A stretch of 64,000 bases of DNA from Psilocybe cubensis (Eukaryota), in the NCBI GenBank assembly GCA_017499595.2, contig CM038998.1, positions 3,782,001-3,846,000 on the forward strand, written 5' to 3'. This document shows positions 9,425 to 56,299 of the stretch, one piece after another (within the stretch, counting starts at the first letter, position 1; every line of letters starts with the position of its first letter). The translations under genes were made by a program, and so were the position numbers. Under the pieces are notes generated by a model. That model did no database searches and was not told where the DNA came from. It saw nothing but the letters and a program-made list of their open reading frames with translations.

Positions 9425-12400
9425 ATGGCCGCTTTGGCTGAACCAGCGATGGACAACACTCGCCAGCGCACCGACCAGCAGCAGCAGCAGCAACAACAAC
9501 ACCAACATCTGCAGCAGCAACAACAACAACTCCACCAGCAGATGCTCCAGCAGCAGTACCCATACACGGTGCAGCAACAACCGCAGGGGACATGGACACC
9601 AAACATCACTGCTACGCCCTTCTACCCCTCCTTCTACCAAAATCAGCAGGCATTTGACCAGCAGCTCGCAGCCCAGTGGGCCTACCAGCAGATGATGTTC
9701 AGTGCCCAGCATGGCTTTCCCCAGCCTGCATTCAACCCATTCCCCAGCGGCACCCCGCCTCCCAGGCAGGACCAGCAGCTGCCTCCTCACCCGTACCGCC
9801 GCCCCAATCGTTCCCAGCAACAACAACAGCAGCCCCTCCCGCCGTACGCCCGCCCCGACGCATCCAGCTCATCATCGTCCCTCAACTCCTCCTCCAGCCA
9901 TCACCACCACCACCCCCGCCAGCGCACCAACAGCACCCAAAGCTCAGCCAGCGCACACCGCCCCGCCTCCCTCCGCTCTGCCTCGGGCGCATCTTCCCGC
10001 TCAACCTCTTCCGCCCCAGCCCAGCCATCGCGCCAGCCCCTCCAGCTGCCCCGCACCGGCTCATCCTCCTCCTCCACTGCCTCCTCTTCCTCCGCGCCCT
10101 CCACCAGCACCACCCAACCCACCTCCCCAACAACCGTCGCCTCCTCCTCCTCCACCGCCACCTCACCCACCGCATCCGGGAGCCTGCCGCGCCTCACACG
10201 CCCCTCGCCCCTCTCCCAGGGCAGCAGCTACAGCGCCGCGGAGAAGCGCAGATCCCGGGACGACAGCGACATCGCCGCGCTCATCCACGAGCAGACGCCC
10301 ACCGCCGCCATCGTGCGCAGCGGCGGGCTCAAAGGCCGCCTCCGCCGCGCGCTCTCCTTCAACGCCGCACAAGCACTCAAAGAGGAAGAAGACGCTGCGC
10401 ATCCGACTGTGTATGAGGAGGACGAGGAGGAGGATGATGTGTCTATTAAAGCTTCTCAGGTCAACGGCAAGCTCAAGGCTAAATCCACCATTGCGCCCCA
10501 GTCTACTACTACTACTGCTGGTACTGCTACTACTACTGCTAAACCACTGGCTCCGCGGGGTAAAACACCAGAGGACGAGGCTGGGCCGTCCACTGCCACC
10601 CCGGTGCCGGTGAAGAAAAAGGGGCGCGCGGCGTCACTCTTCAACTCGCGCTTGAACGCGAGCACAGACAACATCTCGCTCTCGTCCACCGTCAGCTCCG
10701 CGAGCGTCATGATCCGCAAGCTCGGGGCGATGGGCAAGCTCGCCCGACGCAACTCGCTCGCTGGGATCACCTCCCTCTTTAAAGATAAAGATAAGGATAA
10801 AGATAGAGACGGCGAGGGGAAAGACAAAAAGGGGAAAAAGGCAGCAAAGGACGCGAAGAAGACGGCCAAGGGCCAGGCGAGCGAGGCGAGCGTGTCGCAT
10901 GTTACCGCTGAGCTCGATCGGATGGGCGCAGGGGGCGATTGGAGTGTGGGCGCGGAGATGAACGGGCTGTCGCCTGCTGCGAAGCTCGCAAGGCAGCACA
11001 CGCTCAAGTCGAATGCGGAGGCGGCTGCGAAGGCGAAAGAGGCCGCTGCGGCGAAGGAGGCCGCGGAGAAGGAAAAGGAGAAGGAGGCTGCTGCGACGGC
11101 GGCGGCGGCGGGGAGGGGGCAGGTGTTTGCGAATGGCGCGGGGGTGGGGCCCCGGGGGCGGGGGTGCCGGCGTGGGATCGGAATACGGCGACGAGGCACG
11201 GGTCGGTGTCGCCTGTCAAAGGCGGGATGGGCGTGCACAGGATCAACGAGGACGGCACGCGCACGCTCGTAGAGTCCGACGACGAGAGCGACGACGGGCA
11301 TTATCCCCAGCAGCAGCAGCAACAACAGCCATACCACCACCAACAACAACAGCAGCAGCAGCAACAAAATTACAACGCGGACGGATGGGACGACGATGAA
11401 GAATGGGACGTCGATGGCGACGGGGACGGGGACGAGCACGACGGCGATGATGGGGACGAGGACGTCACGATCCGCATGAGCGCCGAGCAGCAACAACACT
11501 CTCAACGCACGAGCGCAGACTCCAACACAAGCGACATGGAGCCGTGGGCCGTCGACATCCGGCGGAGCATCGAAAAGGCGCGGCAGCCCGCCAAAGGCAT
11601 CCTCAAGCGCGCGGAGAGCTACGACCAGCAGGCGTACCTCGTCCAGGACCCACACGCGCATGGATTTGGGCATGGACACGGGCATGGACATGGACATGGG
11701 TTTGGGCAGATGCGCGCGAGATCGAACTCGTACAACGCCCCTGGGACGGGGACGGCGCAGGAGAGTGGGCCGGGCCCGCTTGCGCGCATGCCGAGTCCGG
11801 ATCCTGATCATATTGACGGGCTGCATCGGCACGGGTCGCATTCGTCTGTGCATAAACATCGAGAGCGCGAGCGGGAGAGGGAAAAGGAGCAGGCGCCGTG
11901 GTTGCCGCCGCTTTCGTTTGACGGCGAGTCGTCGTCGCCTCTGTCCAGCACGTTCCTTGGAAGCACGGGCACGTCGAAAGAGCTGCCTGCTACACCCACG
12001 TTCGACTCGCCTTCCTCATCATCATCATCATCACCATCTATAATCGCACCACAGCCCATTCACGCTTCCATACCCAACGCCAACCCCACGCCAACGATAA
12101 CAGCTAACCGCGCATCCGCAATCTACCAACACCCCTCGCTCAACTCCTCCGCACCAGCACTAACAACCCACCCCTCCCCCTCTCCCTCCCCCTCCTCCTC
12201 CCCAACCTCTTCCCACCCCCACCCCCACCCATCCCACCCCCACCCACCAACTCTAACTCTAGCGCACCGCGCCGCCACCGCCCCCGCCCCCACCAAGCGC
12301 CTGACATTCGCCACGAATCTCTCAGTGTACGACACCTTCTCGGCATCGGTGTACGATAGGAGAAGCGAGCCTGCGACGTGGAGCCGGCTTACGCCTGCGC

Positions 12401-12585
12401 TTGCGCAGCGGATTAAGGAGGAGCTGAATTCGTATAAGATGGAGGAGATGGAGGTGCATGCTGCTAGTCGGATTCAGTGCGTTTTTTTGTTTTTTTTTGT
12501 TTCTCTATCTTTTTTTTTTTTTTTTTTTGGTTTGAGATTTGACGTTGAGCTAATCATATCCTCTAGCACACAATTTTTTGTCTGA
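9425..12585 (+). CDS. Bni4-like protein phosphatase 1 targeting protein (Q/S/P-rich, conserved C-terminal domain); apparent 1-nt frameshift near 11150; intron 12477-12566
   Basis: C-terminus KRLTFATNLSVYDTFSASVYDRRSEPATWSRLTPALAQRIKEELNSYKMEEMEVHAASRI|HTQFFV matches the Bni4/Phactr-type PP1-binding tail as I recall it; KGILK motif upstream. The N-half ORF (9362-11272) and C-half ORF (10939-12585) overlap in different frames across a G-rich patch. Confidence 0.8.
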
Positions 12586-12619: not shown

Positions 12620-15230
12620 TCTATCTCATCTAGGTTGGCTCGCTGCGCGCCTTGTTTTTTTTTTTTTTTTTTTTTGAGGATATTAACGATCTGATCTATC
12701 ACGCTCCGCTCTGGCTCCCGCTGCACTCCACGAAACGTCGTCGTCCTCAGTCTTGGCCTCTGCAGTACCAACACCAACACCAACACCGATACCACATGCA
12801 TTCCCTTTCCCTTTTCTTTACGTTTTTTCTTTTACTTTTTTGGACGAAAATGCACCTTTTTATATGTTTCTTTTCATCTCTTTTCCTGTTTCTTTTTTAT
12901 CTCTTTTCTGTTTCTTTCTTTTTTTCTTTTTTCGAGCTGAGTTGAGGGTTGCGTTGAGGGTTGCGTTAGGGGTTGAGGGTTGAGTTGAGTTGAGAGTTGA
13001 GTTAGGGGTTGGGGGTTTCGAAGGCAGGTTTGAGGTTTAGAGGTCAGGTTGCGTTGAGAGTTAGGGGTTGAGTTGAGGGTTGCATTGCGTTGGGGGTTGA
13101 GGGTTTCGAGGGCAGGTTTGAGGGTTGCGTTGCGTTGAGGGCTGAGTTGAGAGTTAGGGGTTGGGGGTTGGGGGTTGAGATCGGAGAGTTAGGGCTTGAT
13201 GGTTGCGTTGAGAGTTGAGAGTTGCGCTGGAGGTTGACGCGTTGACGTTCGAGTTGACGTTCGAGTTTTCATGATCATCGTCGAGTTTTTATTCACCGAG
13301 TTTCCGAGTTTGCGAGTGTCGAGTTGCGAGTGTCGAGTGTCGAGTGTCGAGGTACCATCGTCGTTGTCGGGCCATACCATCGTCATTGTCGGGCCATACC
13401 ACCACCACTTTACCACCCAGCGCCGACTACCGACCACCCGCCATTACCATATCATACCAAGTACCCACCCCTTTTTTGGATCATTTTACCCGTATGCGAT
13501 GTTGATGTTGATGCGTCACTTTTTCTTTTTATTTTTATTTTCTCTTTTCTTGTCTTTTCTTGACTTTTTTTTTGGTCTCTTTTCTTTTTCTTCTGTCTCT
13601 TTCCTCATTTTCTATCTTCGATATTTCCTATTTTTCCTATTTTCCAAGTGACTCCCTACTTTTCTAACTTTCTACTCTCTATTTTTCTATTCCCTACCCC
13701 CTATTCCCTATTCCCTATTTTCTATTTTTCTATACGTGCTCCTCACCTCCAAAATTCTGACCCCTTCTTTTTTTATTTTATTCCTATGCCCTTTCTTCGA
13801 ACGTGGAACTCCGAACTTGAACTTCGAACTTGGAACTTCGAAGCACGCCCCGCACGCACACGCACACGCACACGCACATCCCATTCGCAATACATACCTA
13901 CAACACCACACACACCACACACACACAACACCGTACAACGCATACATACACACATACACCTCATACACCTCATACACACACATATACACATACATACACC
14001 TCATACACCTCATACACACATACATACAACTCTTACAACTCTTTACATGCATACACACCTATTTGACATTTGACTTACGTCCATGATATCCCTTCTTTAT
14101 ATCCCAATTTTTCTTTTTTTGTTTCGTCTTCGTTTCTTTGGTTCTTCGTTTCTTTGTTGCGTTTTTTCTCGTTTCGTTTCGTTTAGTTTCGTTTAGTTTA
14201 GTTTCTTCGTCTTCGTTTCGTTTCGTTTGGGTTTCGGTTTATGATTGACAATTTATAATTTGGTTGACCAACGATCCACCTTTCACATTCCACATTTCAC
14301 ATTACACGTTTCACGTTTCACGTTTTTATCCTTCCTTCCTTCCTTTTTTTTTCTAAAATTTCGAAACTACCTTCAAAATTCCTAGCCCCCAAAAACTCGA
14401 CTCGACAAACTCGAAAACTCGACTCGAAAAATCGAAACTTCTACCCCAACTCGAAAACTTGCACACCTTGCTCTTGACCATCGCCTTCGAAACTCGCCTT
14501 CGAAACTCGCCCTCACCCTCACCCTCACCCTCGCCCTCACCCTCGCCTTCACCCTTACCCATCTCCTCTCCCTCACCCTCACCCTCACCCCCACCCTCGC
14601 CCCACCCCCCCTCCCCCCCAAAAAAATTGAAATGACTATCACTACCCCTTTTTTATAACAAAAATGCAATCTAATGTAATGGTTTTCTTTTTTCTTCTTC
14701 TCTATCTCACTCTACGTCTCTACGTCTCTCTTGACCTTGACCTTGCCGATTATGTTTATATGTTCGTTGATCGTGTTCGTTGATTGTGTTCGTTGATCGT
14801 TCTTGTTCGATGTTCGTTGTTCGATGTTCGATGTATCAGAATCGGATCGACTGGTTTGTGGTCCGTCTCCGTCTCCGTCACGGTGTCTGGGATTCTAGCG
14901 ACAGAGCAGCATATGTGCGCAAGACCTCAAGGCCTCAACCTCAACCTCAACCTCCCCGTCCCCGTCCCCCCGTTCTTTCTTTCTTTATTTTTGGGTCCGC
15001 CTGCATATATATATATAGATACATACACACAGATACACATACACATACGCATACACACATATACATCCGCATATACAGACATTCATACGTACATAGGGAC
15101 CTTCATCCGTCAACCGTCTGCCTTTCTTCCTTTCCTTGCTTGTTTCCTTCCTTCCCTTCCATCTACCAGCTTGTTTCCTTTTTCCTTCTACTCGACTCTC
15201 AGAACAATCAGTCTAAATATTATTCACTTC
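12620..15230. repeat. Extended low-complexity/microsatellite mosaic (poly-T, TTGAGGG/TTAGGGG, TCGAG, CA/CATA, TTTCG, CCCTCA tracts)
   Basis: Directly visible short tandem motifs; ORFs here are compositionally biased. Confidence 0.9.
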
Positions 15231-15351
15231 TGATCTGACTCTCTCGCTTGTTCATGGACAAAGCTTGTATTAATTTAGCATTTCAGTTTGTGAGCTTTGA
15301 GCAAAACGCTTTCAGCTTTCAATTCGCTGCCCGGAGTTATAAGAGCGGCAT

Positions 15352-15391
15352 GACAGTGAGAACAAACAACAAGGTCAGATGATCGTTTATC
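15352..15391 (+). promoter_or_regulatory. Conserved upstream element shared by kinase-like paralogs A, B and C
   Basis: GAC.GTGAGAACAAA(CAA/TTAAA)CAA(T)AAGGTCAGATGATCGT recurs at about 15352, 17947 and 25126, each roughly 90-125 nt before the ATG. Confidence 0.6.
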
Positions 15392-15474
15392 AATGAAACG
15401 GCTCCGTCATGCGGGGTTGATCCTGTCTGCTAGGACCAACGGTGACCTTCCCTTTTCCCTTTTCTCCACCTCAA

Positions 15475-17637
15475 ATGCCTCCCGAAGCAGAAGCAGAAGT
15501 ACCAGTATCGTTTCAGCGCACTCTCAACAACGTCCTCAACGCCAACTACAACCCTAAAACGACGCAATATCAGCGGGGCAAACGACCCGAGGATCACCCC
15601 ATTCAATCGCCTTTGCGATTCTACGATCGACATATCTCTCCCAGCGAATCTTTGCGCAGCATCGTACCACTGCCTTCTATTCCGCATCTTCTATCCGAAA
15701 TATGTGATACCGCTATCGAGGAATTCAAAGCGAAAGGCTACAATTTCCCTCCCAACGTCCACGCCTTGGATATACCTGCGATTGAATTCACCGACTCTGC
15801 TAGTGTCAGACTGCATTATCTAACGTACATAGGGTCGCTTTGCATTGCGTATCTTTCCAAGCTATGTGTCCATCCTGATACCGAGTCCTGGCAAACCGTC
15901 TTTACCTTTATCCAATTTTTGGAGACTGATACATTCTATGCGTCTAAAGCGTATCTAACGGTGACTCTGGATGCAGAGGCAAGGGCAGTCAGACTGCACG
16001 ACGAAATTAAAGGGAAGCTGTCGCAACCTACTCTCGAGAATCTAACAGCACTTTTATTCAAGATGCCCAAGATGGCTGCTTGGCACACGTTTCCTATGCT
16101 CGAGACTTTTACAACAATTTTTCATAATGTGACCAAGCACGTCAGCTCTCTTAGCTGGCCGATATCACGGACCACTGGATACCGTTTCACGGCTCGAACG
16201 ATTCCACCTCCCGATTCAAAGATATTGGGCAATAGGCTACCTGTTCCCCGTGCGTATCACAAAGCAAGATTAGAACCAGGCGAGTCGGGTTCAAATAGAA
16301 AACGGGTCGAAAAATACAGCAAAACTATCACCGTCCCTTATCCTACGCAGCGCAAGCAATATCGCCCTGACTTGCGGACTTATCTACAACATGTGAGTGT
16401 CTTTAATTAGCTGCGATAAGTTGAGTGCTGCTGACGTCGCGTGAAAGGTCTGGGCTGATGCTGCAATGCACGATATAACATTTATCGTCCTGCACTGTGG
16501 CCGTTATGAACGCATCGGTATTCGACATAGGGCATCCCAGACCCTGTATTTATCAGACGTAATTGATACAGTCAATATTAAAGACCCTCACTATCGGAAG
16601 ATTCACATTGGCCTCTACATTGCCACATTGCAAGACGCGTTGGAGCGTATGAAACTAAAGAATACTGGCGACGACAAGGTGGATACCAAGGGCAAAAAGC
16701 GTTTCTCGGTCAACGTGGATGATTCAGAGTCCTCTCGCCCAAAGAAACGACGCAGAGCATCCTCTTCTACTCCATCGTCTAATGTACGTGATTCCATAAA
16801 TTATTCTTCCAGTAATAACTTTGTCCGCTCACTGATGATTTAGATTGGCAAGTACCTCATCGATCGTAAACTGGCCCTTGTTAGCTTGGATTATGGCCCC
16901 TTCTCATCTTCCGTGCCCTCTTCATTCGTACGCATCGGGGAATCATGCAAGCGTACACATTCCCGGGAGGCTACAGACTGGGTCAAGGACCCAACAAAGC
17001 AGCGAAAGTATGCTGCACACGAATATTTTACCCTGACATTATTGGCGCCTTTGGGTGATGGTTCGGTCGGTGTCTCTCATCCTGCGCAGGCAGAAGTAAT
17101 ACTGGAATCCGGAGAAGTCATCACAGAAACACTTGTTCTCAAGCTGGCTTTCAATGAAAAAACACAGAAGAGGATGAGACATGAATTTGATATTTATTGT
17201 CGAATGTCACGCACGGGCATCGAAGGGATTGTGGATGTGCATGGGCTATTTTTTGATGCGGAATCGAACACGCTAGGTCTTCTCATGGCTCATGGCGGCG
17301 AAACGCTTCGCAACCGAGATTTTGCGCGGACGGGGATATATGGCGAGAAGATCAATGGCACAGCCGCAGAAAAGTATGTGAAGCCTTCATCTTACACGCC
17401 TTTATGAATTGCTGACATTACAGTCGCATGGTTAGGAAGGCATTTGAGGATATTATCAGAAATATTCACGAGGCAGACATCAGCCATCATGACATCAGGC
17501 CTGAGAATATGACCATTCGTTCAGACGGCAAGGCCTTTCTCATAGACTTTGATAGTGCTCTTTATCATTCTCCCTTCCGGTCTTTGGATGAGCAGTTGGA
17601 AAATCTGGATGATATCTTTCATAAACCACTCTTGTGA
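15475..17637 (+). CDS. Paralog A: degenerate REase-like N-domain + NLS + minimal protein-kinase-like domain (about 661 aa; exons 15475-16392, 16448-16783, 16844-17373, 17436-17637)
   Basis: GT-AG introns join four ORFs in frame. Kinase motifs: LGDGSVG (Gly loop), VLKLA (Lys), RHEFDIY (alphaC Glu), HHDIRPEN (catalytic loop), LIDFD. RPKKRRR basic cluster. Confidence 0.85.
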
Positions 17638-17759
17638 GTAATATTTTTGTCGACTTGGTTACCCACTGTGTTTGTAGTATCTACCTCGCATTCATGATAT
17701 TTATGTTAATATTTATTCATACCAATGCACAACGCCCGAATTAACTTGTATAACCATTG

Positions 17760-17879
17760 GTGGCACTGACAAAAGCGGCGAAGAAAGCGGAGAAAAAATC
17801 ATTCAAACGAGCCATAAGTTTTAGAAAAAAGCCAGAACCGGATTCACAGTCTAGTGATATCGTAGAATTAAATGATTAG
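17760..17879 (+). pseudogene. 3' remnant of a second copy of gene E (nuclease/pseudokinase)
   Basis: Reads VALTKAAKKAEKKSFKRAISFRKKPEPDSQSSDIVELND*, versus the E C-terminus DAPTKEEKREEKISFKRAISYSKEPESDSQSSDVVDLVES*; GATTCACAGTCTAGTGAT is shared at DNA level. Confidence 0.85.
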
Positions 17880-18039
17880 TAGAGGATTTACAAAACAACT
17901 ATCGAAACATATCCTTGTCTGCGAAGTAGAGTGAGCACTGCCACCTGACTGTGAGAACAAATTAAACAATAAGGTCAGATGATCGTTTATGCCCCTAGTA
18001 CGCTACTAACTCCTTTGTTTTACTCAACTCTGACTTCAT

Positions 18040-20184
18040 ATGCTGCATGAGACAGAAGTATCATTTCAGCGCACTCTCGACAAAGTTCTCAACGCCAACT
18101 ACAATGTTGAAATGACACAGATTCAAGAGGAACGTCCCGATCATCCCATTCGATTGCCTTTCGAGTTCTATGATCGACATATATGTCCCAACGAATCTTT
18201 GTGCAACATTGTACCACTGCCTTCTATTCCGCATATTCTAGCCAACGTATGTGATACTGCTATCGAAGAGTTTAAGGCGAAAGGTCACAAATTTCCTCCC
18301 AACATCCATGTCTTGGATATACCTGCAATTGAATTCACTGACTCTGCTAGTGTCGGAGTGCATTATCTATGGCACATAGGGTCGCTGTGCATTGCATATC
18401 TTTCAAAACTATATTTCCATCCTCATACCGAATCCTGGAGATCCGTCTTCACTTTTAATCGCCATTTCGACACCGATACATTCTTTGCATCCAAATTATA
18501 TCTAACGGTGACTCTGGATGCAGAGGCAAGGGCAGTCAGACTGCACGACGAAATCAAAGGGAAGCTATCACAATCAACTCTTGATACTCTGAACGCACTC
18601 TTATTCAATATGCCCAAGATGGCTGCTTGGCACATGTTTCCTATGCTCGACACTTTTACGACGATATTTCATAATGTGCCCAAGCGTGTCAGTTCGCTGA
18701 GTTGGCCAATATCACGGACCGCTGGATACCGCTTCATAGCACGAACATTTCCACCGCCCGATTCGAAGATTTTGACTAATATGCTACCTGTTCCCAGTGC
18801 ATATCGCAAAGCGAGAGTGGAATCAGGCGAGCCAACTTCATCCAGAAAACGAGTCGAGAAGTATAGCAAAACTATCACCGTACCTTATACGACACAACGC
18901 AAACAATATCGCCCTGACTTGCGGACTTATCTACAACATGTGAGTGTCTTTAATTAGCTGCGATAAGTTGAGTGCTGCTGACGTCGCGTGAAAGGCCTGG
19001 GCTGATGCTGCAATGCACGATATAACATTTATCGTGCTGCACTGTGGCCGTTACGAACGCATTGGTATCCGACATAGGGCGTCCCAGACCCTGTATTTAT
19101 CAGAGGTAATTGATACAGTCAATATCAAAGACCCTCACTATCGGAAGATTCACATTGGCCTCTACATTGCCACATTGCAAGACGCGTTGGAGCGTATGAA
19201 ACTAAAGAATACTGGCGACGACAAGGTGGATACCAAGGGCAAAAAGCGTTTCTCGGTCAACGTGGATGATTCAGAGTCCTCTCGCCCAAAGAAACGACGC
19301 AGAGCATCCTCTTCTACTCCATCGACCGATGTACGTGACTCCATAAATTATTCTTCCATTAATAACTTTGTTCGCTCACTGATGATTTAGATTGGCAAGT
19401 ACCTCATCGATCGTAAACTTGCCCTTGTTAGCTTGGATTATGGCCCCTTCTCATCTTCCGTGCCCTCTTCATTTGTACGCATTGGGGAATCATGCAGGCG
19501 TAAACATTCCCGGGAGGCTACAGACTGGGTCAAGGACCCAACAAAGCAGCGAAAGTTTTCTGCACACGAATATTTTACCCTAACCTTATTGGAGCCTTTG
19601 GGTGATGGTTCAGTCGGTGTCTCTCATCCTGCGCAGGCAGAGGTAAAACTGGAGTCCGGAGAAGTCATCACAGAAACACTTGTTCTGAAGCTGGCTTTCA
19701 ATGAAAAAACACAGAAGAGGATGAGACATGAATTTGATATCTATTGTCGTATGTCACGCGCGGGCATCGAAGGGATTGTGGATGTGCATGGCCTATTTTT
19801 TGATGCGGAATCCAACACATTAGGTCTTCTCATGGCTGATGGAGGCGAAACGCTTCGCAACCGAGATATTGCGCGGACGGGAATATATGGCGAGAAGATC
19901 AGTGGCACAGCCGCAGAAAAGTATGTGAAGCCTTCATCCTACGCGCCTTTATACATTACTGACATTACATTCGCGTGGTTAGGAAGGCATTCGAGGATAT
20001 TATCAGAAGTATTAATGAGGCAGATATCAGCCATCATGATATCAGGCCTGAGAATATGACCATTCGTTCAGATGGCAAGGCCTTTCTCATAGATTTTGAT
20101 AGTGCCCTTTATTATTCTCCCTTCCGGTCTTTGGAGGAGCAGTTGGAAAATTTAGATGATATCTTTCATAAACCACTCTTGTGA
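18040..20184 (+). CDS. Paralog B of the REase-like/kinase family (exons 18040-18939, 18995-19330, 19391-19920, 19983-20184)
   Basis: Same exon structure and motifs as A (FYDRH, LQH|AWADAAMHDITFIVLHCGRYERIGIRHR, HHDIRPEN, IDFD). Confidence 0.85.
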
Positions 20185-20365
20185 GTAGTATTTCATTGAC
20201 TTATTTGACAGCCAGCGTGTTTGTAGTACCTACCTTGCATCCTTGGTATTTATGATGCACAACACCCAAATTCACTTGTAGTCTGTCAGGTTTGTGTGAT
20301 TACGTGCTTTGATCTTGTGTAGCGCGTCCTTTGATTATTATCTTCTTAGCATCTTTCTTTCCTTA

Positions 20366-21861
20366 GGCCACATTCGGTAACCCTGTTAGACTTGGAGTCG
20401 GTTAGGTTAGGTCAGGGGGCACCCAGCGCAACGACCCGTAAAATCAACCTACCCCCTCGGGTCGTGAGAATCTAGTCATGTGCTCCGTCATATGGTAGCC
20501 TCAGGTAGCCCAAGTGAATTGTTATCAAGTCGTGCAACTACTACATCATAGCTTTACGCTTTTCTCCTCTTTGCACGCCCAGACGAGCTCATTGTATACG
20601 ATCTGGCACGCTTATCTACGGCTTCTGTACCTAGTTCAAACTCATGAATGGCTTCCTCGAGACCACCACTGCTTGGTATATCATATTCCACCCTGTATTC
20701 TGTTGTAGCTTGTTTGACCTTGCTATTCTCTGTAACAATTGCAGTTGAACTGGATACAATTTCAAGATAAAAAAGTCTAGAAACGACAGAACGCGAGAAT
20801 GATGTTCTAAATCTAAGTACTCTTTAGCCGTGGGAACGAGGCCGGGCAGTGACACACGACGGAGCATGACTATATTCTCACGACCCGAGGGGGTAGGTTG
20901 ATTTTACGGGTCGTTGCGGTGGGTGCCCCCTGGGTTAGGTTTTCCCCCGCCAAGCCGAGCCAAGTCGGTTACCTCTGGTTACGTCTGTCACGCTATGTCA
21001 CTTCTTGGCAGGCAAAAACCAGAAAGTCGGATCGACTGGGTCACAGGTCCAACATGGACCGTGGCCCAGACTTGGACTTGGACTTCGGGGCTTGACCGAG
21101 ATAAAATCTCACCGTGGCCCACATATGGCCTTTGTGTAAACCTCCAGTGGACTAGATATGTTCCACATATATTCCTGTTGTTGTACCATGAGTGACAAAC
21201 ATGGAGCTTAAGGGGAACCTGTGGGATGAGTCACCTGATTGGATCAAACTCGAAAACTCAGCCGAAACTCAGCTTGAACTTGGAATATTTGCGGCATATT
21301 GAGACTCATTCAACTGCTTTTAACATCATTTGTGGTGGTGCATTGCTCAAAAAGATTTAAATGGTTCTCTATCACCAGAAGAATTATTGTTTAGATATTT
21401 ATGAATATTGACCAAATCTCTAGTGCTTTAAACAATATTAGGGCTCTTCAGAATGATCAATGTTATATCAAATTTATATAGGGAGTTACTTGGATTACTT
21501 AGAAAATTAATGCCATAGTACCATGCTAGTTTATAATGAGTTAGAGAAGCTACTTAATCCAATTTTTTAAATTCAGTGGTAATTTACTGGTTATTTATCA
21601 GATTCTGTCAGCTGTGGCACAAACACAATGGCAATGACGGGCAAAGGTAACACTAAAATAACACCTACGATGGACCTTGCCTTGGACCTTGGGAAAATCT
21701 GACAAATATTCCCAGATTCATGTGAGGGCCAAGTCCAGGTCCAGGTCCAGGTCCATTTGGCCCTCGCTCCCAGTCGATCCGACGCTCTCGCAAAAACGTG
21801 ACAAATCGTGACCAAACCTAACCTAACCTAACCGACTTTAACAGGGTTACCGAATGGGGCC
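20366..21861. mobile_element. Non-autonomous PIF/Harbinger-like DNA transposon, about 1.5 kb including the nested insert
   Basis: TIRs GGCCACATTCGGTAACCCTGTTA... and ...TAACAGGGTTACCGAATGGGGCC, flanked on both sides by TTA (20363-20365, 21862-21864). Extra subterminal inverted matches (GTCGGATCGACTGGG about 21026 / CCCAGTCGATCCGAC about 21769). No transposase ORF. Confidence 0.85.
20413..20932. mobile_element. hAT-like MITE (520 bp) nested in the left end of the Harbinger-like element
   Basis: About 75-bp TIRs CAGGGGGCACCC...GGGTCGTGAGAAT / ATTCTCACGACCC...GGGTGCCCCCTG, with an 8-bp direct flank GGTTAGGT at 20405-20412 and 20933-20940. Confidence 0.88.
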
Positions 21862-22761
21862 TTATATCTGTTATTTTTTTTGTGTGAAGCTGGAGAACAC
21901 CCCTCCCTCAATACTCCCGCCTTATATTCTCTTTTTGTGTGTGCTTTCTCCGATGATCAGTGCGTCTTCGTTCCTATTGGACGTTGGATTACTATATATG
22001 GCAATGGCGTTCTTTGTCGCTTTTCACTTTTTTTAGAAAGGCCTGATCGCAGCGTGGAATTGCGGCGCGTTTTTTCTCTACCCCACCAACATCACCTCCG
22101 AACCAAAATACCTGGCGACGCTATGAGGACGTTGTTCCGGATCTTGTACTGTGCCCTCCCATCTTACCTTATACTTCCTTCCAGAGTTCCTTCTGTCCCA
22201 CATTATTCCTTTATCCAGTAGCCTCAAAGCTCAAAGTTGGCATAAAGACATTCACACGGTTTGAACTCTGATGATCCTATTGTGTTACCCTAATTACACG
22301 GCTCATCACAGCTTAATTGTGTTTACAGGTGACTTTGACATGTTCCTCATGACTCGGTAGTAGGGTGTAGAACAAGAGAAATACAATGAGATGTGATGAC
22401 AGCGTGAGTGTCATCGTACAACGAGTACGTGCTTATTATGATTTTTTTGTTGCTAACACCCACTTGAACAAAAAGTAGCAGGGGTACACCCGTACATTGA
22501 CATTTGCGGCTCATGGTCTTCTATTGGTGGGTAAACGTAAATGTCTTTGTCCTAAGCTTCTGCAATGTCATAAATGCCTTGACAACATTGGGAGCGTGGT
22601 AACAACTCTGTTGCAATCATCGAACTCACTGTAGCCGTTTTATCATTTATGGCGTTCAGACGAGCTTTGCTCTACTTGTTCAAAGACTATAAGATGGCAC
22701 TGCGAAATAGAACCAGCTCCCCAGATTCAAATTGTTCAACACTCACTCACTTCTGTCTCCA

Positions 22762-25069
22762 ATGCATACAAAACAATCCCAAGGGGGCTCGATGCTAGAC
22801 GATAAAGGACGTACTCTAAAAAGGTCTTATAGTGATGCAAACTCTTCCTTCTCAGAAACAAGCTCTACTGGGACCAAACCCCAGCAAACCTCCGTCGTTG
22901 GTTCAGAATCTCGGCTCACAGATATCTCTCCTATGGCTTCGCTTGAATCGTTTTTGCAAAAGCCTTCACCTTTTTATAAAACGGCTCCTAACCACACACC
23001 TAGTGTCAAGACCAAACAGCCCCAACCATTTGATCTGCACCTGCACCCCCGTCTTCGCCTTAAGAAACTCGAAGTTCTTGAGCGCCTGCCAGACGTCTTG
23101 TCTCAGTACTGCGACAAAATCATTCAAGAGAGCTCTGATTATCTCTCATCGGCACCTCCTCTCCCGGGACCGAAGACTCTTCCCGATACTTTAGTTGACC
23201 CGATCGCAAACGAAGATAAGCTGGTTACCCAATACATTATAGACCATGAGGCACATTTGCGGGTCGCATCTGGACTCCTCTTCAAAAAGGGGTGGAAGAA
23301 AGTACTCAATATGGTCAAACCAGACCAGGATCGACACGAAGCCATTGCGGACGTTCTAACAACAATCAATAAACAGGTCAAAACCTCTTTGACTAGAGAG
23401 CAGATTTCGGATATCGAATTGATCCGCAAATACCTACTTGACGTTTTTGTTACCTTTGAATTCAAAAGTTTGGTGTGTGGCCCCCCGATTTTCCAAAGTT
23501 TGCGCCGCCTGGAGGGTGATTTTCCTTGGATGGCATGCGAAGAGAGGACAAATTCCAAAGATAGCTCTACCTCATGCGGACGACCTGGTCATCGTGTCGG
23601 CGGCTCGTTGATTACTACTGGCAGACTAACCACTCCTGATTCGGTTATCATCAAGAATCTCATTAATGAAGCCCAAAAACGCAACACAGGGTCTGCTAAG
23701 CGTCTTAAAGAAGACCTGGAACCACTTGCCCTGACCAACAAGAACAGTGTACTCTATCTCCTACAACAGGCGAGTAGATCTTTTTTTGTTAAGCTCACAT
23801 AAATTTTGGCTAAACTTTTTGTTAGTTTTGGGCGCAGCTAGTAGCGGAGGACTGTTCTGTGGGCATTCTATCTATTGGAAACGAAGAATTTGTTGCCTTT
23901 CGGGATAGGGATACACAAACGCTATTTATCTCTCCACTGATTGAATGCACAAAGAGCTGTAATCCAAGCCACTCAAAGATATTGGTGGCATGCTTCCTGC
24001 TTGGCTTCAATGACGCTTTGGATCGTGCCGGCCAGATGGAATTTCAACTTTCGACAGTAAACTTTTCTCATTGGGGATACAGGTTACCTTTGGACAAGCT
24101 ATCATTCTACGTGAAGTCGAAGCTTGGCGAGCGTATGTTGAAGATGTTACCACAACCCCAGTTGACGGATCATAACGCAGTAAGCAATGTTTGGAACCTT
24201 ATAGTGACTTTTTCTGAGGCGATGTTCACCTTTTCTTTTACAAAGGACATTATCCCAAAACTTGATAAAACTTCACAAATATCCTTGCGCTTCCACGACC
24301 AGACAATTTCCCGAAAACTTGGAGGTTCTCCACACCTCACAGCATGGAATTTGCAAAGACATGAATCGAAAGGCAATGCTAACAGTCAGCCAAAAAACGA
24401 CTATGAGGTCTTTCTTGACTTCAAACATGAGCCTTGCCTCTCAAAAAAAGGTTTTGTGGTTTATTTGGGTATCCTCGATAAAGGATCAAATATTCCATCG
24501 ACAAAGTACTACTCGCGGCCCTTGTACGTAAAGATGGCTCGAAACGCAGCGCAGGCCAAAACTCTAGAAAAAGAGTATAGCAATTACAGGGCCTTAGAAT
24601 CCAAAGGGCTCAAATCAGCTATAGTACAAACACATGGGCTTTTTGGAGCTGAAGGCCTTCCAGGCCATAAGTTTTTACTATTGGAGAATGGGGGGAAGAC
24701 AGCAACACAAATGACGAAGGCAAACCTCAAGCGACACAGGTAAGTAGTTACAGCATGGCTTTATCCAAACAATTCATTTTTTCATGTTTTACTATTATCC
24801 GGTATCTCTGCATCAGAAAAGCATATATGAGCGTTCTAAAACGTTTCCATAATGCAGAAGTCCTGATTGGGAATGTCGAAGATGGTCATATACTCATGGA
24901 TGATTGTAATCGAGTGACTGTGATCAGTCTCTCCAACATTTCTACTGATGCACCTACAAAAGAGGAAAAGAGAGAAGAAAAAATCTCATTTAAGAGAGCC
25001 ATAAGCTATAGCAAAGAACCAGAATCTGATTCACAGTCTAGTGATGTCGTAGATTTAGTAGAATCATAA
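22762..25069 (+). CDS. Gene E: PD-(D/E)xK restriction-endonuclease-like domain + pseudokinase (exons 22762-23769, 23826-24179, 24246-24739, 24817-25069)
   Basis: EAIADV...VTFEFKSL...LYLLQQ|FWAQLVAEDCSVGILSIGNEEFVAFRDRDTQTLFISP. Kinase N-lobe LYVKMA..EKEYSNY..THGLF..LLLENGG, but the catalytic loop reads LIGNVEDGHI and the DFG position reads SLS. Intron 1 has a GC donor; all three introns match A-D in position and phase. Confidence 0.78.
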
Positions 25070-25249
25070 ACTATCCCAATAATGCTACGAGCGTTCAACG
25101 TAATGTACTGTAGTAAGCACCACTTGACGGTGAGAACAAACAACAAGGTCAGATGATCGTGTATCTGTAGAACGGCGGTGTCACTAAACGTATGCCCCTA
25201 GTACTCCGCATACTACTACCACCTTTCTCTTACACAAATCTCACCGCGT

Positions 25250-27404
25250 ATGCCATCTGAAAAAGAAGACGAATTTCAGCCCATTCTCGACAAAGTCCTC
25301 AAAGCCAACTACAATGCTAAAATGAGACAATATTGGGAGGAACGTCCCGATGATCCTGTTCGATCCCCTTTCCGGTTCTATGATCGACACATAAGTTCCA
25401 GCGATTCGTTGCGCAACATTGTACCATTACCTTCCATTCCACATCTTCTATCCAAGACCTGTGACTCCGCTATCGAGGATTTCAAGGCGAAAGGTCACAA
25501 ATTTCCTCCCAATGAGCATGACCTGAATATACCTTCAGTTAAATTCACTGATTCTGCTAGTGTCGGAAAGCATTATCTATGGTACATCGGGTCGCTATGC
25601 ATTGCATATCTCTCGAAGCTACAAATTCATCCTCATACCGAATCCTGGCGATCTGTCTTTACCTTTAATTGGCATTTGGACACCGATACATTCTATGCAT
25701 CCAAAATATATTTAACGGTGACACTGGATGCAGAGGCAAGGGCAGTCAACCTAAACGACGAAATCAAAGGGAAACTATCGCAACCTACTCTCGACAATCT
25801 GACAGCACTTTTATTCAAGATGCCCAAGATGACTGCGTGGCACATGTTCCCCATGCTCGACACTTTTACAACAATATTTCATAATGTGACGAAGTATGTC
25901 GGTTCGCTGAGTTGGCCGATATCGCGGACCACTGGATACCGCTTCACAGCTCGAACGACTCCACCTCCCGATTCGAAGATTTTGACTAATATGCTGCCTG
26001 TTCCTGGTACGTATCGCAGAGCGAAATCGCAACTGGCCGGCGAACCTGCTTCGTATAGACAACGAGTTGAGAAATATAGCAAAACTATCAGCGTACCTTA
26101 TTCTACGCAACGCACACAATATCGCCCTGACTTTCGACATTATTTGCAGCATGTGAGTGTATTTAATTAGCTGCGATAGGTTGAGTACTGCTGACGTCGC
26201 GTGAAAGGCCTGGGCTGATGCTGTAATGCACGATATAACATTTATTGTCCTGCACTGTGGCCGTTATGAACGCATTGGTATTCGACATAGGGCATCCCAG
26301 ACCCTGTACTTATCTGGAGTAATTGATACAGTTAACATCAAAGACCCTCACTATCGGAAGATTCACATTGGCCTCTACATTGCCACCTTGCAAGACGCAT
26401 TGGAACGTATGAAACTCAGGAATTCTGCCGACGATAAGGTGGATATAAAGGGCAAAAAGCGTTCCTCGGTCAACGTGGATGATGCAGAGTCCTCTCGCCC
26501 AAAGAAAAGACGCAGAACATCCTCTTCTCCTGCATCGACCGATGTACGTGACTTCGTACTTTGCGGCTTACATTTCTATCTATGAATTTTCCCGCTCACT
26601 AATCATTTAGATTGGCAAATATCTCATCGATCGTAAACTCGCCCTCGTCAGCTTGGATTATGGCCCCTTCTCATCTTCCGTGCCCTCTTCATTCGTACGC
26701 ATTGGGGAATCATGCAAGCGTAAACATTCCCGGGAGGCTACAGACTGGGTCAAGGACCCAACAAAGCAGCGAAAGTATGCTGCACACGAATATTTTACCC
26801 TGACATTATTGGCGCCTTTGGGTGATGGTTCGGTCGGTGTCTCTCATCCTGCGCAGGCAGAAGTAATACTGGAGTCAGGAGAAGTCATCACAGAAACACT
26901 TGTTCTCAAGTTGGCTTTCAATGAAAAAACACAGAAGAGGATGAGACATGAGTTTGCTATTTATTGTCGAATGTCACGCGCGGGTGTCGAAGGGATTGTG
27001 GATGTTCATGGCCTATTTTTTGATGCGGAATCCAATACATTAGGTCTTCTCATGGCTCATGGCGGCGAAACGCTTCGAAACCGAGATATTGCGCGGACGG
27101 GGATATATGGCGATAAGATCAGTGGCACAGTTGCAGAAAAGTATGTGAAGCCTTCATCTTACGCGCCTTTATGAATTGCTAACATTACATTTGCATGGTT
27201 AGGAAGGCATTCGAGGATATTATCAGAAATATTAACGAGGCAGATATCAGCCATCATGACATCAGGCCTGAGAATATGACCATTCGTTCAGACGGCAAGG
27301 CCTTTCTCATAGACTTTGATAGTGCTCTTTATCATTCTCCCTTTTGGTCTGTGGAGGACCAATTGGAAAATTTGGACAATATCTTTCATAAACCTCTCTT
27401 GTGA
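25250..27404 (+). CDS. Paralog C of the REase-like/kinase family (exons 25250-26152, 26208-26543, 26611-27140, 27203-27404)
   Basis: Same structure and kinase motifs as A and B; starts 180 nt after the stop of E. Confidence 0.85.
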
Positions 27405-27735
27405 GTAATACCTTCATCGACTTGTTTGCCAACTGTGCTTGTAGCACCTACTTCGCATTCATGATGTTTATGCTATTATTTATCTACCTTGTTTTTTGAT
27501 GCATGCCCGAATCAATTTGCACAATTCAATCTCTTTTCACTTACATACTGTGATATTGTGCAGCAATCCGTTTGATCGCTGGCATGTAGCAGGGAAGTGA
27601 GGTTCATCACAATGACATCGGATCCAATACTGGTGGACTCATCATCAGGCCGTGGGAATCAACTTCCACCATACCTCCGGTTTTAGCACTCGTGAGCTTC
27701 ACTCTCCACCTCGTTAACAAACACGCGCCATACAT

Positions 27736-29872
27736 ATGCCACTCGGAAAGAAGGATACGTTCTGGAATGTTATTGACAACATTTTGGACGTTAACTACAA
27801 TCCTGGTATAACTCAACGCACGGGGGATCACTCTGTTGGATCTATTACATCTCCGTTGAAGTTCTACGATCGGCATATTGGACCCAACCATACTTTGCAA
27901 AATGTTGCACACCTCCCGTCTCTTCCACAACTTCTAGCCAAAACGTGTGATACTGCCTTAACGCGACTTCGACAAAAAGATCGCAAACTCCAGGCTGACC
28001 CATACCATTTTCAGCCGATCCCTCGTGCCAAATTTGGCGATGCTGAGAGTGTCAGATGGTATTATAGCGAAAATATTAGCGACATAGGACATTCGATGGT
28101 TTCAAAATTATGCTTCCACCAGCATGTTAAAGATTGGCCGTCCGTCTTTGAGCTTGTGAAGGAACCCTGGGATACCTTCTACATGTCGGAGGGATTCCTG
28201 AAAGTAGCCGAAGATTGGATGACAGGGACAATATATCTGGACGACGCATTGAAAGGAAAGCTATCGCAGTCAGACCAAGCTACTCTTCACTCTCTTTTAA
28301 AGAAGTTTCCCAAATTGGCCATCTGGCATGTGTACCCGATGCTTGATATATTTATGACAACGCTCAGCAAAACAACGGGGACTTTCAGCCTGCGTTGGGA
28401 AATCCCTCGCACCACAGGATATCGGCTCACAACACAAACATTTCCATCCCCTGATGGTGGTTCAGTGTCTCATAAACTCGGTATTCGCAACTTTGCTCGC
28501 AAAGGTAGCACGGGAGGTCACCCTCTAGAGAGGAGGCGCACGGTTAAAGGAGGGAAATCCGTCACTCGACCCCTTGCGGCCGATCGTGCACGTTATCGCC
28601 CTGAATTTCGTCACTATATACAACATGTAGGTACCCTCTATATCCTGCAGAGCTACAGAAGAAGTTCATTAATGTGTTTCAAGGCTTGGGCACAATCCGT
28701 TATGCACGACACAACATTTATAATACTTCATTGTGGACGTTACGAGCGTATCGGAATTCGGCATCGAGCGTCGCAGACTCTCTATCTCTCGGGTGTAATC
28801 GACACAGTAAACATAAAAGATCCTCGGTACCGGAAAATGCACATTGGCCTTCATTTTGCTATTCTTGAAGATGCCCTGGAACGTGTTGAAGCAGGCAAGG
28901 TCCAAGATAAAAAAACGGAGTTAAAATCGAAAAAACGCGCCTCGGAGGTTGAAAATGCCGAGTCTCTTCCTCAGCCAAAAAGGCAGCGGATAATGGATCC
29001 TTCGTCTGTGCCAAATGATTCATACGGTAATGTAAATCGGCTTTTCTGTAAAGTTCGGTGGTCAGAGTCTTATGTCTGTGTAGATTGGGGAACACCTGTT
29101 TAACCGGAAACTAGCCCTTGTAAGCTTGGATTATGAGGCCATGTCGTCATCTGTACCTTCATCATTCATACGCATCGGAGAATCGTGCAAGAGGAACGAC
29201 TCTTCTGAGGAAACAGACTGGACCAGGGATTTATCCAACAAGCGACAGTTTACAACAGACGAGTATTTTACTCTCAAGTTGCTCGCACCATTGGGTGACG
29301 GCGCAGTTGGCGTTGCCCACCCCGCCGTGGCTGAAGTTACGTTGTTGTCTGGAGAAGTCGTGAGACAAAATCTTGTCTTCAAGATGTCATTTACAGAACA
29401 GGGTCAGAAGAAGCTAAGAGACGAGTTCAACATTTATTGCCGTATGTCCCGCTCAAACGTCAAAGGAGTTCCGGATGTACATGGCCTCTTCCATGACGCA
29501 GAGTCTGACACATTGGGTCTCTTGATGTCAGATGCCGGTAAATCCCTCCGCCAAAGGGACCTCGAACGTACAGGAGTTTACGGCGAGAAAGTGCAGGGCA
29601 CATTAGAAGAAAAGTATGTACATCTTTTCCTATAATTTTATCAACCGCATTTTGACTAAGTTCCTATGTATCTCAGAGAGGCATTTGCAGAAGTAATTAG
29701 AGGCCTAGATAAGGCCTGGATCGCACATCAAGATATAAGAGCCGAAAACCTGACCATTGACTTGCATGGGAATGCCTTCATCATCGATTTTGACTGTGCA
29801 GAATACAATTCTATCTACGTTACTTTGGCCCACCAACTGCGACAATTGGACAATGTTTTCAAAGAGATGTGA
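27736..29872 (+). CDS. Paralog D (more diverged) of the REase-like/kinase family (exons about 27736-28626, 28684-29031, 29084-29613, 29677-29872)
   Basis: FYDRH, YIQH|AWAQSVMHDTTFIILHCGRYERIGIRHR, LGDGAVG, VFKMS, AHQDIRAENL, IIDFD. Confidence 0.85.
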
Positions 29873-33107: not shown

Positions 33108-33437
33108 CTAAATGTATAATCCCTCACTGTGTGACACATTTCTTGAAGGTAATTCCGAGATATGGGCTTCAACCTTAACTACAACTTTCCATGGGAGCAT
33201 TACTTGGCCAACATAACGGCCGTCTGGGTCATGACCTGGGCCGACACGGTATTCCTCCGCGTTGATTAAAATGATGTTGAGTGGCTTATCGGTGCCAGCG
33301 AATGTGCCTATGAAGACCCGACCGTCCGTAGTAGTAATTCGTAGAAGCTCCGTGAGTAGAGAGTGCAAGCGGGTCAGAGCAGAAGCAGGCGAAGATGGAG
33401 GCGAGGACGCGGATGATGGTGGTACAGAAGAAAACAT
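33108..33437 (-). CDS. MAK31: LSM-domain NatC auxiliary subunit (Mak31/Naa38-like)
   Basis: LRITTTDGRVFIGTFAGTDKPLNIILINAEEYR...RYVGQVMLPWKVVVKVE fits Sm1/Sm2 motifs of the LSMD1 type. Confidence 0.75.
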   Translation of the reverse strand: MFSSVPPSSASSPPSSPASALTRLHSLLTELLRITTTDGRVFIGTFAGTDKPLNIILINAEEYRVGPGHDPDGRYVGQVMLPWKVVVKVEAHISELPSRNVSHSEGLYI

Positions 33438-33578
33438 GGTCAGATCTAATCTGGGCAAGGTCGCGTGACTAATTACAGACACGTCACATCGCGTCCGGTG
33501 AAAAGGAACCCTCTTGATATTCTACCGCTATAATACTGTGACGGCCAACACACTCCTTTTTCGATGCCAGCCATCTAA

Positions 33579-38353: not shown

Positions 38354-39204
38354 TTCAACTTCCGGCTTCAACAAAGTCTTTAGGAGAAGGGCCTAAGAAA
38401 AAAGACAGGAGAGTAGTCTAGAGCGCTCCTAGTGCTTGTACACTAAGAACAAGTAGTGGCACCTTCGAGAATGAACCGGAATATGTCCCCGGCGAATCTA
38501 TAGTTGGGTTTGATTTTTATCAAATCAAATCAAGTCGAAATGTACACTACCACTACTTTTTCAAATCTGCTGGAGGCCAGATCTCCGCTAGAATGGTGTA
38601 AAACGTGGGTGTCAAAAAAATCACATTTGTAACTTCCGAGAGACCTGTAGTGCCATACAAATAGCTCATGTTGAAGTCATTTTAGGAGGCCTAGATTTAG
38701 GCGATTGATGAAAGGTACTTTGTCCCAAACATACAGCTGATCGTCGCTGACTGTAACGCCTCGGGAACCGATTTACGACTCGACGAAGGCATAGAACAAG
38801 AAAAAGGGAGTACATCTGCATTGTAACTCGAATATAGAGGACGTGGCGGGATAGTAACTGATATCGAGGTGATGGCACAAAATCACTGGCAAATATTTCA
38901 CTGATTGTAGCTCACTGGCAGATTCAGTAACCTGAATATATCTATTTGATGTATACTCTTTGTGAAAGTTACAGTGCCGACGCTCCAAGGCATCTCCTGG
39001 TGAGCCAGAATGTAGGCGATGGGTTTGCGATGAGTATGAGGAAGCCTGGGCCCTGGCCACTATTTTTCTGCGTTGATATTTGTATATGTTATTATCGCAG
39101 GACGTAGTGATGTCATTATATTTGTCATAAATTGGTATTGATAACTGACCCTAATTGAGCTGTTGAAAACACATCATAACCTTGTGCCCCCATCATCACT
39201 CACC

Positions 39205-55361: not shown

Positions 55362-56299
<938 letters not shown>

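Follow-up and report, generated by a model that had tools for sequence, protein, structure and literature searches.

Nuclease and kinase motifs degenerate reciprocally in linked genes of a mushroom REase-kinase family from Psilocybe cubensis

What would a cluster of neighbouring paralogs do if one of them had kept a nuclease and lost a kinase, and the others had kept the kinase and lost the nuclease? This question is raised by a locus of the mushroom Psilocybe cubensis, located in a stretch of 64,000 nucleotides of contig CM038998.1 (assembly GCA_017499595.2, positions 3,782,001 to 3,846,000 of the forward strand). The whole stretch is hereafter called the window, and window positions are used throughout. 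Five intron-bearing paralogs, in the order A, B, E, C and D, span positions 15475-29872, all on the + strand; genes A to D are called A-type and gene E is called E-type. Each protein of the family consists of an N-terminal domain with a restriction endonuclease (REase) fold, a linker, and a small kinase that is truncated in the C-lobe and resembles the Kdo, RIO and Bud32 kinases. Judged by their motifs, the E-type proteins are pseudokinases with a catalytically plausible nuclease, and the A-type proteins join a degenerate nuclease fold to a kinase with competent motifs.

The predicted catalytic residues of the gene E nuclease fall between positions 23209 and 23469 (+) and comprise the Glu of NEDKLVTQY (23209-23235), the Asp of IADV (23344-23355), and the Glu and Lys of FEFKS (23455-23469). 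The pseudokinase core of the same gene lies at 24522-24934 (+), where the beta-3 Lys is kept in LYVKM (24522-24536), the catalytic loop has degenerated to LIGNVEDGH (24863-24889), and ISLS (24923-24934) replaces the DFG motif. In genes A to D the kinase motifs are intact (GDGSVG, VLKL, RHEF, HHDIRPEN or HQDIRAEN, and IDFD), and the ExK position of the nuclease reads WHTFP in A, WHMFP in B and in C, and WHVYP in D. In gene A, for example, WHTFP is found at 16081-16095, HHDIRPEN at 17485-17508 and IDFD at 17542-17553 (+). All five genes and motifs that an initial annotation of this DNA had quoted were present, and the models of A to D correspond to database proteins.

The same division was observed well outside this locus. 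A search with D returned 44 A-type relatives from the Agaricales genera Psilocybe, Galerina, Hebeloma, Gymnopilus, Agrocybe, Flammula, Volvariella, Pluteus and Pleurotus. An exhaustive phmmer search with exon 1 of E returned 57 E-type proteins, many of the short matches being open-frame calls that stop at intron 1. Named E-type proteins originated from P. cubensis (two further loci), P. cyanescens, Hebeloma, Galerina, Gymnopilus, Flammula, Cyclocybe and two Agrocybe species, and also from three Armillaria species, Laccaria, Asterophora and Arthromyces. Searching with E exon 1 among longer proteins gave no homolog, the database model of E itself being only 346 amino acids (aa) long, and a profile of 21 full-length E-type proteins was overwhelmed by candidates, recovering P0046 and one 75%-identical P. 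cubensis protein alone, so that distant relatives, any Spok link among them, were beyond its reach. In 51 E-type sequences, E, D, E and K, the last two in WEFKS, were the sole invariant columns of the modelled N-terminal region. All four of these positions are replaced in the A-type, in which W-x-F-F-A/P-M stands in place of WEFKS. In the kinase part of the E-type the beta-3 Lys is invariant and the alpha-C Glu nearly so; the glycine loop, the catalytic Asp and Asn, and the DFG motif are lost.

Profiles of the two types were aligned by hhalign over 594 columns with a probability of 100 (E 7.7e-70). This alignment paired nE / ADGFL / WEFKSL of the E-type with da / e~~L / W~ffpm of the A-type, and H~~l~~~hiLm / Isl with H~DiR~~Nlli / IIDFD. 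A tree was built from 32 A-type and 24 E-type full-length proteins, leaving out A-type rows below 600 aa and E-type rows outside 640-900 aa (two over-long models were removed). The types part on a single branch with a Shimodaira-Hasegawa-like approximate likelihood ratio test (SH-aLRT) value of 100. Gene E is placed beside P0046 and P0102, both P. cubensis paralogs, and A to D group with P0003 and P0007 of the same chromosome; the E-type branches are long and the E side is fast-evolving. From these sequences, the family had already divided into two sister lineages, each losing what the other kept, when the Agaricales sampled here diverged. The initial annotation had proposed a reciprocal partition of nuclease and kinase among the neighbours at this locus, and the partition proved to be conserved across two ancient sister subfamilies.

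No doubly active chain, with both live nuclease and live kinase residues, was found among the members examined. One candidate for such an ancestral form, the 1333-aa protein P0055 from Cyclocybe, was rejected because its gene model unites an E-type gene with the A-type gene that comes after it. The 1641-aa protein P0095 from Laccaria contains one WEFKS and near-kinase motifs, with no match to HxD..N.

The N-terminal domains of both types were selected for structural prediction with AlphaFold2. The E-type region was modelled from P0046 (residues 121-480, 50 relatives aligned), which stands in for gene E, and the A-type region from gene C (residues 1-371, 37 relatives aligned). The predicted local distance difference test (pLDDT) score and predicted template modelling score (pTM) were 87.9 and 0.90 for the E-type model and 86.6 and 0.87 for the A-type model. 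Both were compared with the PDB in an all-against-representatives structural alignment, with a tool that calls Z values near 8 common. The nuclease domain of BpuSI was the top match in each case (E-type Z 9.1, root-mean-square deviation 3.6, 145 residues aligned; A-type Z 8.8, 3.6 and 144). Further matches were to DrdV (Z 8.1 for the E-type and 6.5 for the A-type), HsdR of V. vulnificus (6.3 and 5.8) and HsdR of EcoR124I (5.6 and 6.2). Hjc, SgrAI, NucC and many more nucleases follow in both lists, and by title 38 of the 50 listed rows for the E-type and 30 of 50 for the A-type are nucleases or resolvases.

In the P0046 model the first invariant Glu is found where helix 90-100 begins, the Asp immediately precedes strand 138-142, and the Glu and Lys of ExK belong to strand 169-175. 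Based upon the consistent match lists, the agreement of two independent models, and the location of the invariant residues at PD-(D/E)xK site positions, both N-terminal domains are modelled as members of the PD-(D/E)xK restriction-endonuclease fold. The alpha-beta-beta-beta-alpha-beta core of that fold is seen in the predicted structures of both types. The catalytic residues are present in the E-type, including gene E, and absent in A to D. A PD-(D/E)xK-like core had been proposed initially from the motifs of E, and the two models bear it out. A complex prediction for P0046 121-480 with gene C 1-371 gave a score of 0.00; this run was made without alignments or controls on proteins that are not a neighbour pair, and bears neither way.

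Located after the ExK strand, a near-invariant F-x-W-x-x-C ... C ... H motif was also noted in the E-type (in E at about residues 250-275, window positions about 23510-23590). It falls in the least confident part of the model, and its cysteines are missing in the A-type. From its sequence, this Cys/His motif may bind metal.

The kinase assignment was drawn from several searches. The C-terminal part of the E-type profile (positions 471-627) matched solved kinases, with CK1/YCK2 at E ~3e-7. Many A-type proteins carry precomputed Pfam matches to Pkinase or APH, and Pfam scans of 21 full-length E-type proteins gave weak kinase matches only. In a look-alike search the kinase of gene C fell among small Kdo/APH/RIO/Bud32-like kinases, and PADLOC returned only generic Ser/Thr-kinase matches for A-type proteins. 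The linkers of A, B and C contain PKKRRR (gene A, 16739-16756; equivalent positions in B and C), and D contains a weaker version, PKRQR. We take PKKRRR to resemble a classical nuclear localisation signal.

Conservation across the whole family is highest in a block at 23847-23933 in E and 26229-26315 in C (around CGRYERIGIRHRASQTLYLS), the alignable segment that the initial annotation had pointed out as shared by all five genes, and it is real. In the models this block forms the later strands and a long helix of the domain, with strands 290-294, 298-305 and 310-313 in the E-type model and 313-317, 321-328 and 333-336 in the A-type model. Both types share four invariant residues within it, namely D, E, R and R. 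As these residues are shared by nuclease-live and nuclease-dead proteins alike, the sequences imply that the block must serve something besides a canonical active site. The possibility that its D..E.. is the true active site was considered and rejected, since the block lies on later strands, has no Lys and is equally invariant in the dead A-type, and since the four invariant E-type residues occupy the canonical positions.

Gene models were constructed by joining open frames through introns with GT..AG borders, or GC-AG in the case of intron 1 of E, and their coordinates include the stop codons. Gene A (15475-17637, +) has exons 15475-16392, 16448-16783, 16844-17373 and 17436-17637 and encodes 661 aa. 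Gene B (18040-20184, +) has exons 18040-18939, 18995-19330, 19391-19920 and 19983-20184 (655 aa), gene C (25250-27404, +) has exons 25250-26152, 26208-26543, 26611-27140 and 27203-27404 (656 aa), and gene D (27736-29872, +) has exons 27736-28626, 28684-29031, 29084-29613 and 29677-29872 (654 aa). The spliced models are identical over their full length (100%) to database proteins: A to P0005 (JR316_0001287), B to P0004 (JR316_0001288), C to P0002 and D to P0001 (JR316_0001292). Gene E (22762-25069, +) has exons 22762-23769, 23826-24739 and 24817-25069 and encodes 724 aa. Pairwise identities are 84-87% among A, B and C, 50-51% between D and A to C, and 18-21% between E and A to D. A tblastn search of the whole window with C and E revealed no extra copy besides one short E-type relic.

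Three introns at shared positions had been claimed initially for all five genes, and this stood in full for A to D and in part for E. Each of A to D has three introns, in phases 0, 0 and 2. Contigs from sequencing run X4, which is RNA by the tool's guess only and comes from another strain, join D at 28626|28684, 29031|29084 and 29613|29677, all GT..AG and all matching the model. They also join the three equivalent junctions in A/B/C-like transcripts (16392|18995, 26543|16844 and 17373|27203, mapped across paralogs). In E, intron 3 (24740-24816) is canonical, in phase 2 and at the position equivalent to that in A to D. Intron 1 of E (23770-23825) is at the equivalent QQ|FW position, and its donor is GC rather than GT (GCGAGT), making it a GC-AG intron. 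The linker intron of E is a candidate only, namely a 66-base, in-frame, stop-free GT..AG stretch in phase 0 (24180-24245), which sits at the position of the A to D linker intron and matches a gap in the alignment of paralog P0046. If this stretch is removed, the product of E is 702 aa instead of 724.

The model of gene E appears to be good, as it is collinear with the annotated 755-aa paralog P0046 and keeps the columns that are invariant in the family. Of the columns defined by 21 full-length E-type proteins, gene E preserves 20 of the 22 invariant ones and 15 of the 16 near-invariant ones. All four nuclease residues are among those preserved, and every exon is open, over about 2.2 kb. No X4 contig was found over 20687-24822 and no transcript contig covers E, which has no bearing on its expression. 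No database model of the pseudokinase half of E turned up; that half was never used as a query.

E-type and A-type genes are also physically linked, frequently as immediate neighbours and mostly with the E-type gene first on a shared strand. Only 180 bp separate the stop codon of E from the start codon of C. A relic of an E-type 3' coding end is found just upstream of B (17763-17870, +); its 108 bp are 79% identical to positions 24950-25057 of the last exon of E, and tblastn with E residues 698-721 detected it at 75% identity. This relic indicates that the duplication creating B copied the tail of an E gene together with an A-type gene. Short promoter-proximal segments common to the regions upstream of A, B and C were also observed (15351-15402, 17930-17990 and 25112-25176).

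A second P. cubensis locus, which is on the same 4.68-Mb contig at a distance of about 50 gene numbers, holds an E-type gene (JR316_0001338) and two A-type genes (JR316_0001341 and 1344), and a third E-type gene lies on another contig (JR316_0013328). In Galerina the consecutive identifiers 253433 and 253434 are E-type and A-type, and a second E/A pair shares one contig. In Gymnopilus the E-type gene 1843847 is beside the A-type genes 1843848, 51 and 53, and another pair is on one contig. In Hebeloma and Agrocybe pediades an E-type gene is on the same contig as A-type genes, and in Cyclocybe the two types are fused in the single 1333-aa gene model described above. All E-type genes with a linked A-type gene fall in one 9-member subclade (SH-aLRT 100).

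An annotation-free check of linkage was made on 32 metagenome loci found by an A-type pattern, in which open frames were scored with separate exon-1 profiles; some of the contigs come from the same sample series and may be non-independent. An A-type exon 1 was found in 22 of the 32 loci, and an E-type exon 1 also in eight. Ten loci had an upstream flank of 3 kb or more, and six of these carry an E-type exon 1 on the same strand, 2.3-3.1 kb ahead of the A-type exon, a spacing comparable to the 2.5 kb in the window. In a seventh of the ten, the E-type exon 1 is downstream and convergent, and the other three have none. In three of the loci A-type genes are broken into short low-scoring frames (L013, 5419-9830; L029, 8122-9545; L030, 2636-4058), which are probably decayed copies.

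Among A, B and C the ratio of non-synonymous to synonymous substitution (dN/dS) is 0.23-0.24 overall; the dead nuclease domain gives 0.24-0.31 and the kinase 0.15-0.18. These low values in every domain indicate that all parts of the three proteins are constrained by purifying selection. Synonymous divergence (dS) among the same genes is two to four times higher in exon 1 (0.44-0.62) than in the kinase exons (0.15-0.21), a contrast that points to a mosaic history or to gene conversion affecting the 3' parts. Three DNA sequencing runs from one study all carry E. In two of them no differences were detected over the two listed contigs that span most of the gene; in the third, about 1.3% of positions are different.

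How two such proteins might work is suggested by the Spok spore killers of Podospora (Spok1-4), in which both activities are on one chain. In one study of Spok (PMC6660238), a kinase-dead Spok3 (D667A) was toxic even in vegetative cells and was rescued in trans by wild-type Spok3; a truncation without the kinase (1-490) was also toxic; and a nuclease mutant (K240A) had lost killing and kept protection. A second study (PMC9972908) reported that kinase-dead Spok1 caused DNA damage in E. coli and yeast that depended on the nuclease lysine. For the REase-kinase Crinklers, the REase is thought to be toxic and the kinase regulatory, according to PMC5289972.

By analogy with these mutants, we give an even chance to the reading that the nuclease of E is an executor held in check or licensed in trans by a neighbouring A-type kinase. 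The two types would then act together as one two-component system. The E-type protein would be a DNA-damaging executor that could not restrain itself because its kinase is dead, and in this it may be likened to two toxic mutants, D667A of Spok3 and D680A of Spok1. Restraint or licensing in trans would come from the A-type kinase, comparable to Spok3 K240A, which is nuclease-dead and protective, and the dead nuclease domain of the A-type would probably be a binding or recognition module. Such a system might act in meiotic drive, in non-self recognition or in defence, the roles that the initial annotation had suggested for a poison (E) and an antidote or regulator (A to D). A more specific form of this reading is rather doubtful: E/A pairs would be a naturally split Spok-like killer, with a stable DNA-damaging toxin of the E-type and a linked A-type kinase antidote, forming an addiction or meiotic-drive module or an allorecognition trigger.

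Several observations count against this reading. The toxicity of the E-type and the antidote role of the A-type are postulated by analogy with Spok mutants. The presence/absence polymorphism that a driver might show was not seen for E in the three DNA runs. The fold matches, at Z 8-9, are barely above the level that the tool calls common; Foldseek found no match in the PDB at E <= 0.001, a sequence search of the PDB with an N-domain-only profile gave 0 matches at E <= 10, and Pfam on the exon pieces of the window gave only sub-threshold kinase matches in the last exons and none for the N-terminal domains. The splicing of E, including the GC-AG intron and the fusion of nuclease to pseudokinase, is a model predicted from sequence, and the NCBI model of E (P0045, 346 aa; 22762-23802) reads into intron 1 and stops there. 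Linkage is also incomplete. In the gene lists used, which are incomplete, about half of the named E-type genes lack an A-type partner on their contig; no same-contig A-type gene was listed for the named E-type genes of other subclades (JR316_0013328 and those of P. cyanescens, Flammula, Armillaria and one A. pediades), and no named E-type gene was found in Pleurotus, Pluteus or Volvariella, which have A-type genes. At the window locus one E stands beside four A-type genes, and the adjacency of the types could be a leftover of tandem duplication. The co-occurrence of the two types that the initial annotation had expected across Agaricales thus stood for neighbours in several genera and on metagenome contigs and was not seen, within the incomplete lists, for about half of the named E-type genes. 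The pair that it had described did not stand as a one-to-one relation.

Three other explanations were weighed. One proposes that E-type and A-type proteins form an obligate hetero-oligomer, a regulated nuclease serving some cellular or defensive process, in which each partner contributes its one live site and no poison or antidote logic applies. It would resemble the heterodimers of active and inactive nuclease paralogs, XPF-ERCC1 and Mus81-Eme1, and would descend from a homo-oligomeric nuclease-kinase ancestor whose paralogs each lost one activity after duplication. The clean reciprocal loss fits such an assembly, as do purifying selection on both types and conservation of the dead A-type nuclease domain; the D..E..R.R invariant in both types would suit a shared interface, and the types are tightly adjacent and were duplicated together within Psilocybe. 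The unequal copies (one E to four A-type genes in the window) do not fit it, nor do the many E-type genes without an A-type neighbour in the lists examined. The family is moreover patchy and lineage-expanded, with long, fast E-type branches, a pattern more often seen in conflict systems than in housekeeping enzymes, and we consider this explanation unlikely.

Equally unlikely in our estimation is an arrangement in which the two families are independent and their adjacency was merely inherited. The E-type would be a nuclease under its own pseudokinase, and the A-type a kinase whose dead nuclease fold binds nucleic acid or protein. Tandem duplicates often remain adjacent, and the existence of several E-type subclades and of some A-type-bearing genera with no same-contig partner in the lists would be accounted for. 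Harder to explain in this way is that the E-before-A order, with a shared strand and comparable spacing, recurs in several genera and six of the ten informative metagenome contigs despite about 20% identity between the types; the 3' end segment of E was in addition duplicated along with an A-type gene, and both types were duplicated in parallel to the second P. cubensis locus. Gene E of the window might instead be a silent or decaying copy, which would leave a locus of effectively four A-type kinase genes. This was suggested by intron 1, which lacks a GT donor and within which the NCBI model stops. P0045 apparently ends there because the donor is GC rather than GT. GC-AG introns are a known minor class, and the open exons and the retained invariant and near-invariant residues, with all four nuclease positions, argue against decay. 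So does the presence of E in three sequenced strains, of which even the most divergent differs by only about 1.3%, and we regard decay as very improbable. Regulation of the E-type nuclease in trans by a neighbouring A-type kinase is the reading retained here, at the even chance given above.

The surroundings of the cluster were also surveyed. Between B and E, and outside the gene family, a repeat insertion of about 1.5 kb lies at 20365-21874 (no strand assigned). In DNA runs X2 and X3, contigs pass directly from 20365 to 21874 and skip 1508 bp, and word depth over 20687-22237 is 3-10 times that of the flanks. The insertion is a multi-copy repeat present in this strain and not in all strains. 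Flanking genes encode a leukotriene A4 hydrolase C-terminal domain (1946-2368), LSM (33111-33521), DUF6535 (35299-36939), NUDIX (38021-38392), F-box (39342-39686), Nic96/Nup93 (45079-47281), SMN (48418-48918) and Ras (55713-56135) proteins. These genes appear ordinary, which places the cluster in normal chromosomal surroundings and not in an obvious mobile element. The region 10001-12000 has a G+C content of 64%, compared with about 45% elsewhere, and contains overlapping long frames (9341-11269, +; 10459-12015, -; 10912-12582, +), for which no Pfam match was found at E <= 1e-5. Upstream of A, positions 13560-15240 are of low complexity and strongly skewed, with CA/CT-type repeats that encode His-Thr and Ser-Pro runs in several frames.

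No description of a split nuclease/kinase pair, or of this Agaricales family, was found in the full-text literature, subscription journals and supplementary files aside. What is new is a toxin-like REase-kinase architecture in the form of two reciprocally degenerate, linked genes, in mushrooms. The family is a clean example of the reciprocal loss of two activities following duplication. How the kinase of Spok or Crinkler type restrains the nuclease is hard to dissect in Spok, where both activities share one chain. The mushroom family supplies the two halves as separate, conserved neighbour genes, so that toxicity, protection in trans, substrate and binding could each be tested with wild-type proteins. 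If the pairs were a split killer, they would be the first such system in Basidiomycota and a natural separation-of-function Spok, in which the mechanism of kinase versus nuclease would be directly testable, and Spok-like biology would be extended from Ascomycota to mushroom-forming fungi.

Of the known systems, the restriction enzymes BpuSI, DrdV and HsdR provide the best structural matches for both N-terminal domains, and their E...D...ExK arrangement is the same as that of the E-type. They differ from the mushroom family in having no detectable sequence similarity to it, and the methyltransferase, helicase and specificity modules are not found in the mushroom proteins. The mushroom genes are moreover eukaryotic and intron-bearing, with large insertions between the core strands. 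XPF-ERCC1 and Mus81-Eme1 are heterodimers of an active and an inactive nuclease paralog, and are similar in that a dead paralog of the same nuclease fold is retained beside a live one. They are universal DNA-repair enzymes without kinase domains or a reciprocal second loss.

Crinklers resemble the family as toxin modules composed of REase and protein kinase, CRN8 being an example, and a Crinkler+Pkinase cluster from Mucoromycota was recovered as a structural look-alike with a template modelling (TM) score of 0.52. No Pfam match to the Crinkler or ubiquitin-like header was found in the window exons or in 21 full-length E-type proteins, and the precomputed Pfam entries of the A-type proteins are kinase families only. 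Crinklers are single-chain effectors delivered into hosts, in contrast to a split, presumably intracellular family of saprotrophic and ectomycorrhizal mushrooms.

The comparison with Spok and Crinkler proteins made in the initial annotation was apt in architecture, with the same order of domains. In Spok, too, a PD-(D/E)xK nuclease is followed by a small eukaryotic-like kinase that ends soon after the DFG region. The look-alike search also returned SPOK2_N clusters, at 0.93 by features and TM 0.59 and 0.56 by structure, which is a lead and not a test. Pfam scans of family members gave no SPOK2_N match, with a Pfam copy not known to hold that entry; the SPOK2_N entry may already include some of these mushroom proteins. 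The Spok cluster C-x3-C-x13-C-x5-H-x7-H upstream of the kinase, as given in PMC6660238, is missing in that form from the mushroom proteins, in which the E-type has C-x12-C-x(few)-H inside the nuclease domain and the A-type has none there. The 282 homologs of that report are from Ascomycota, and the word "Basidiomycota" is missing from its main text. The best HHpred match reported there for the Spok nuclease was HsdR of V. vulnificus, which is also a structural neighbour of both N-terminal domain types in this study. Both activities are carried on one Spok chain and are split over two genes in the mushroom family. The engineered Spok mutants would mirror the two natural types, with the kinase-dead form corresponding to the E-type and the nuclease-dead form to the A-type.

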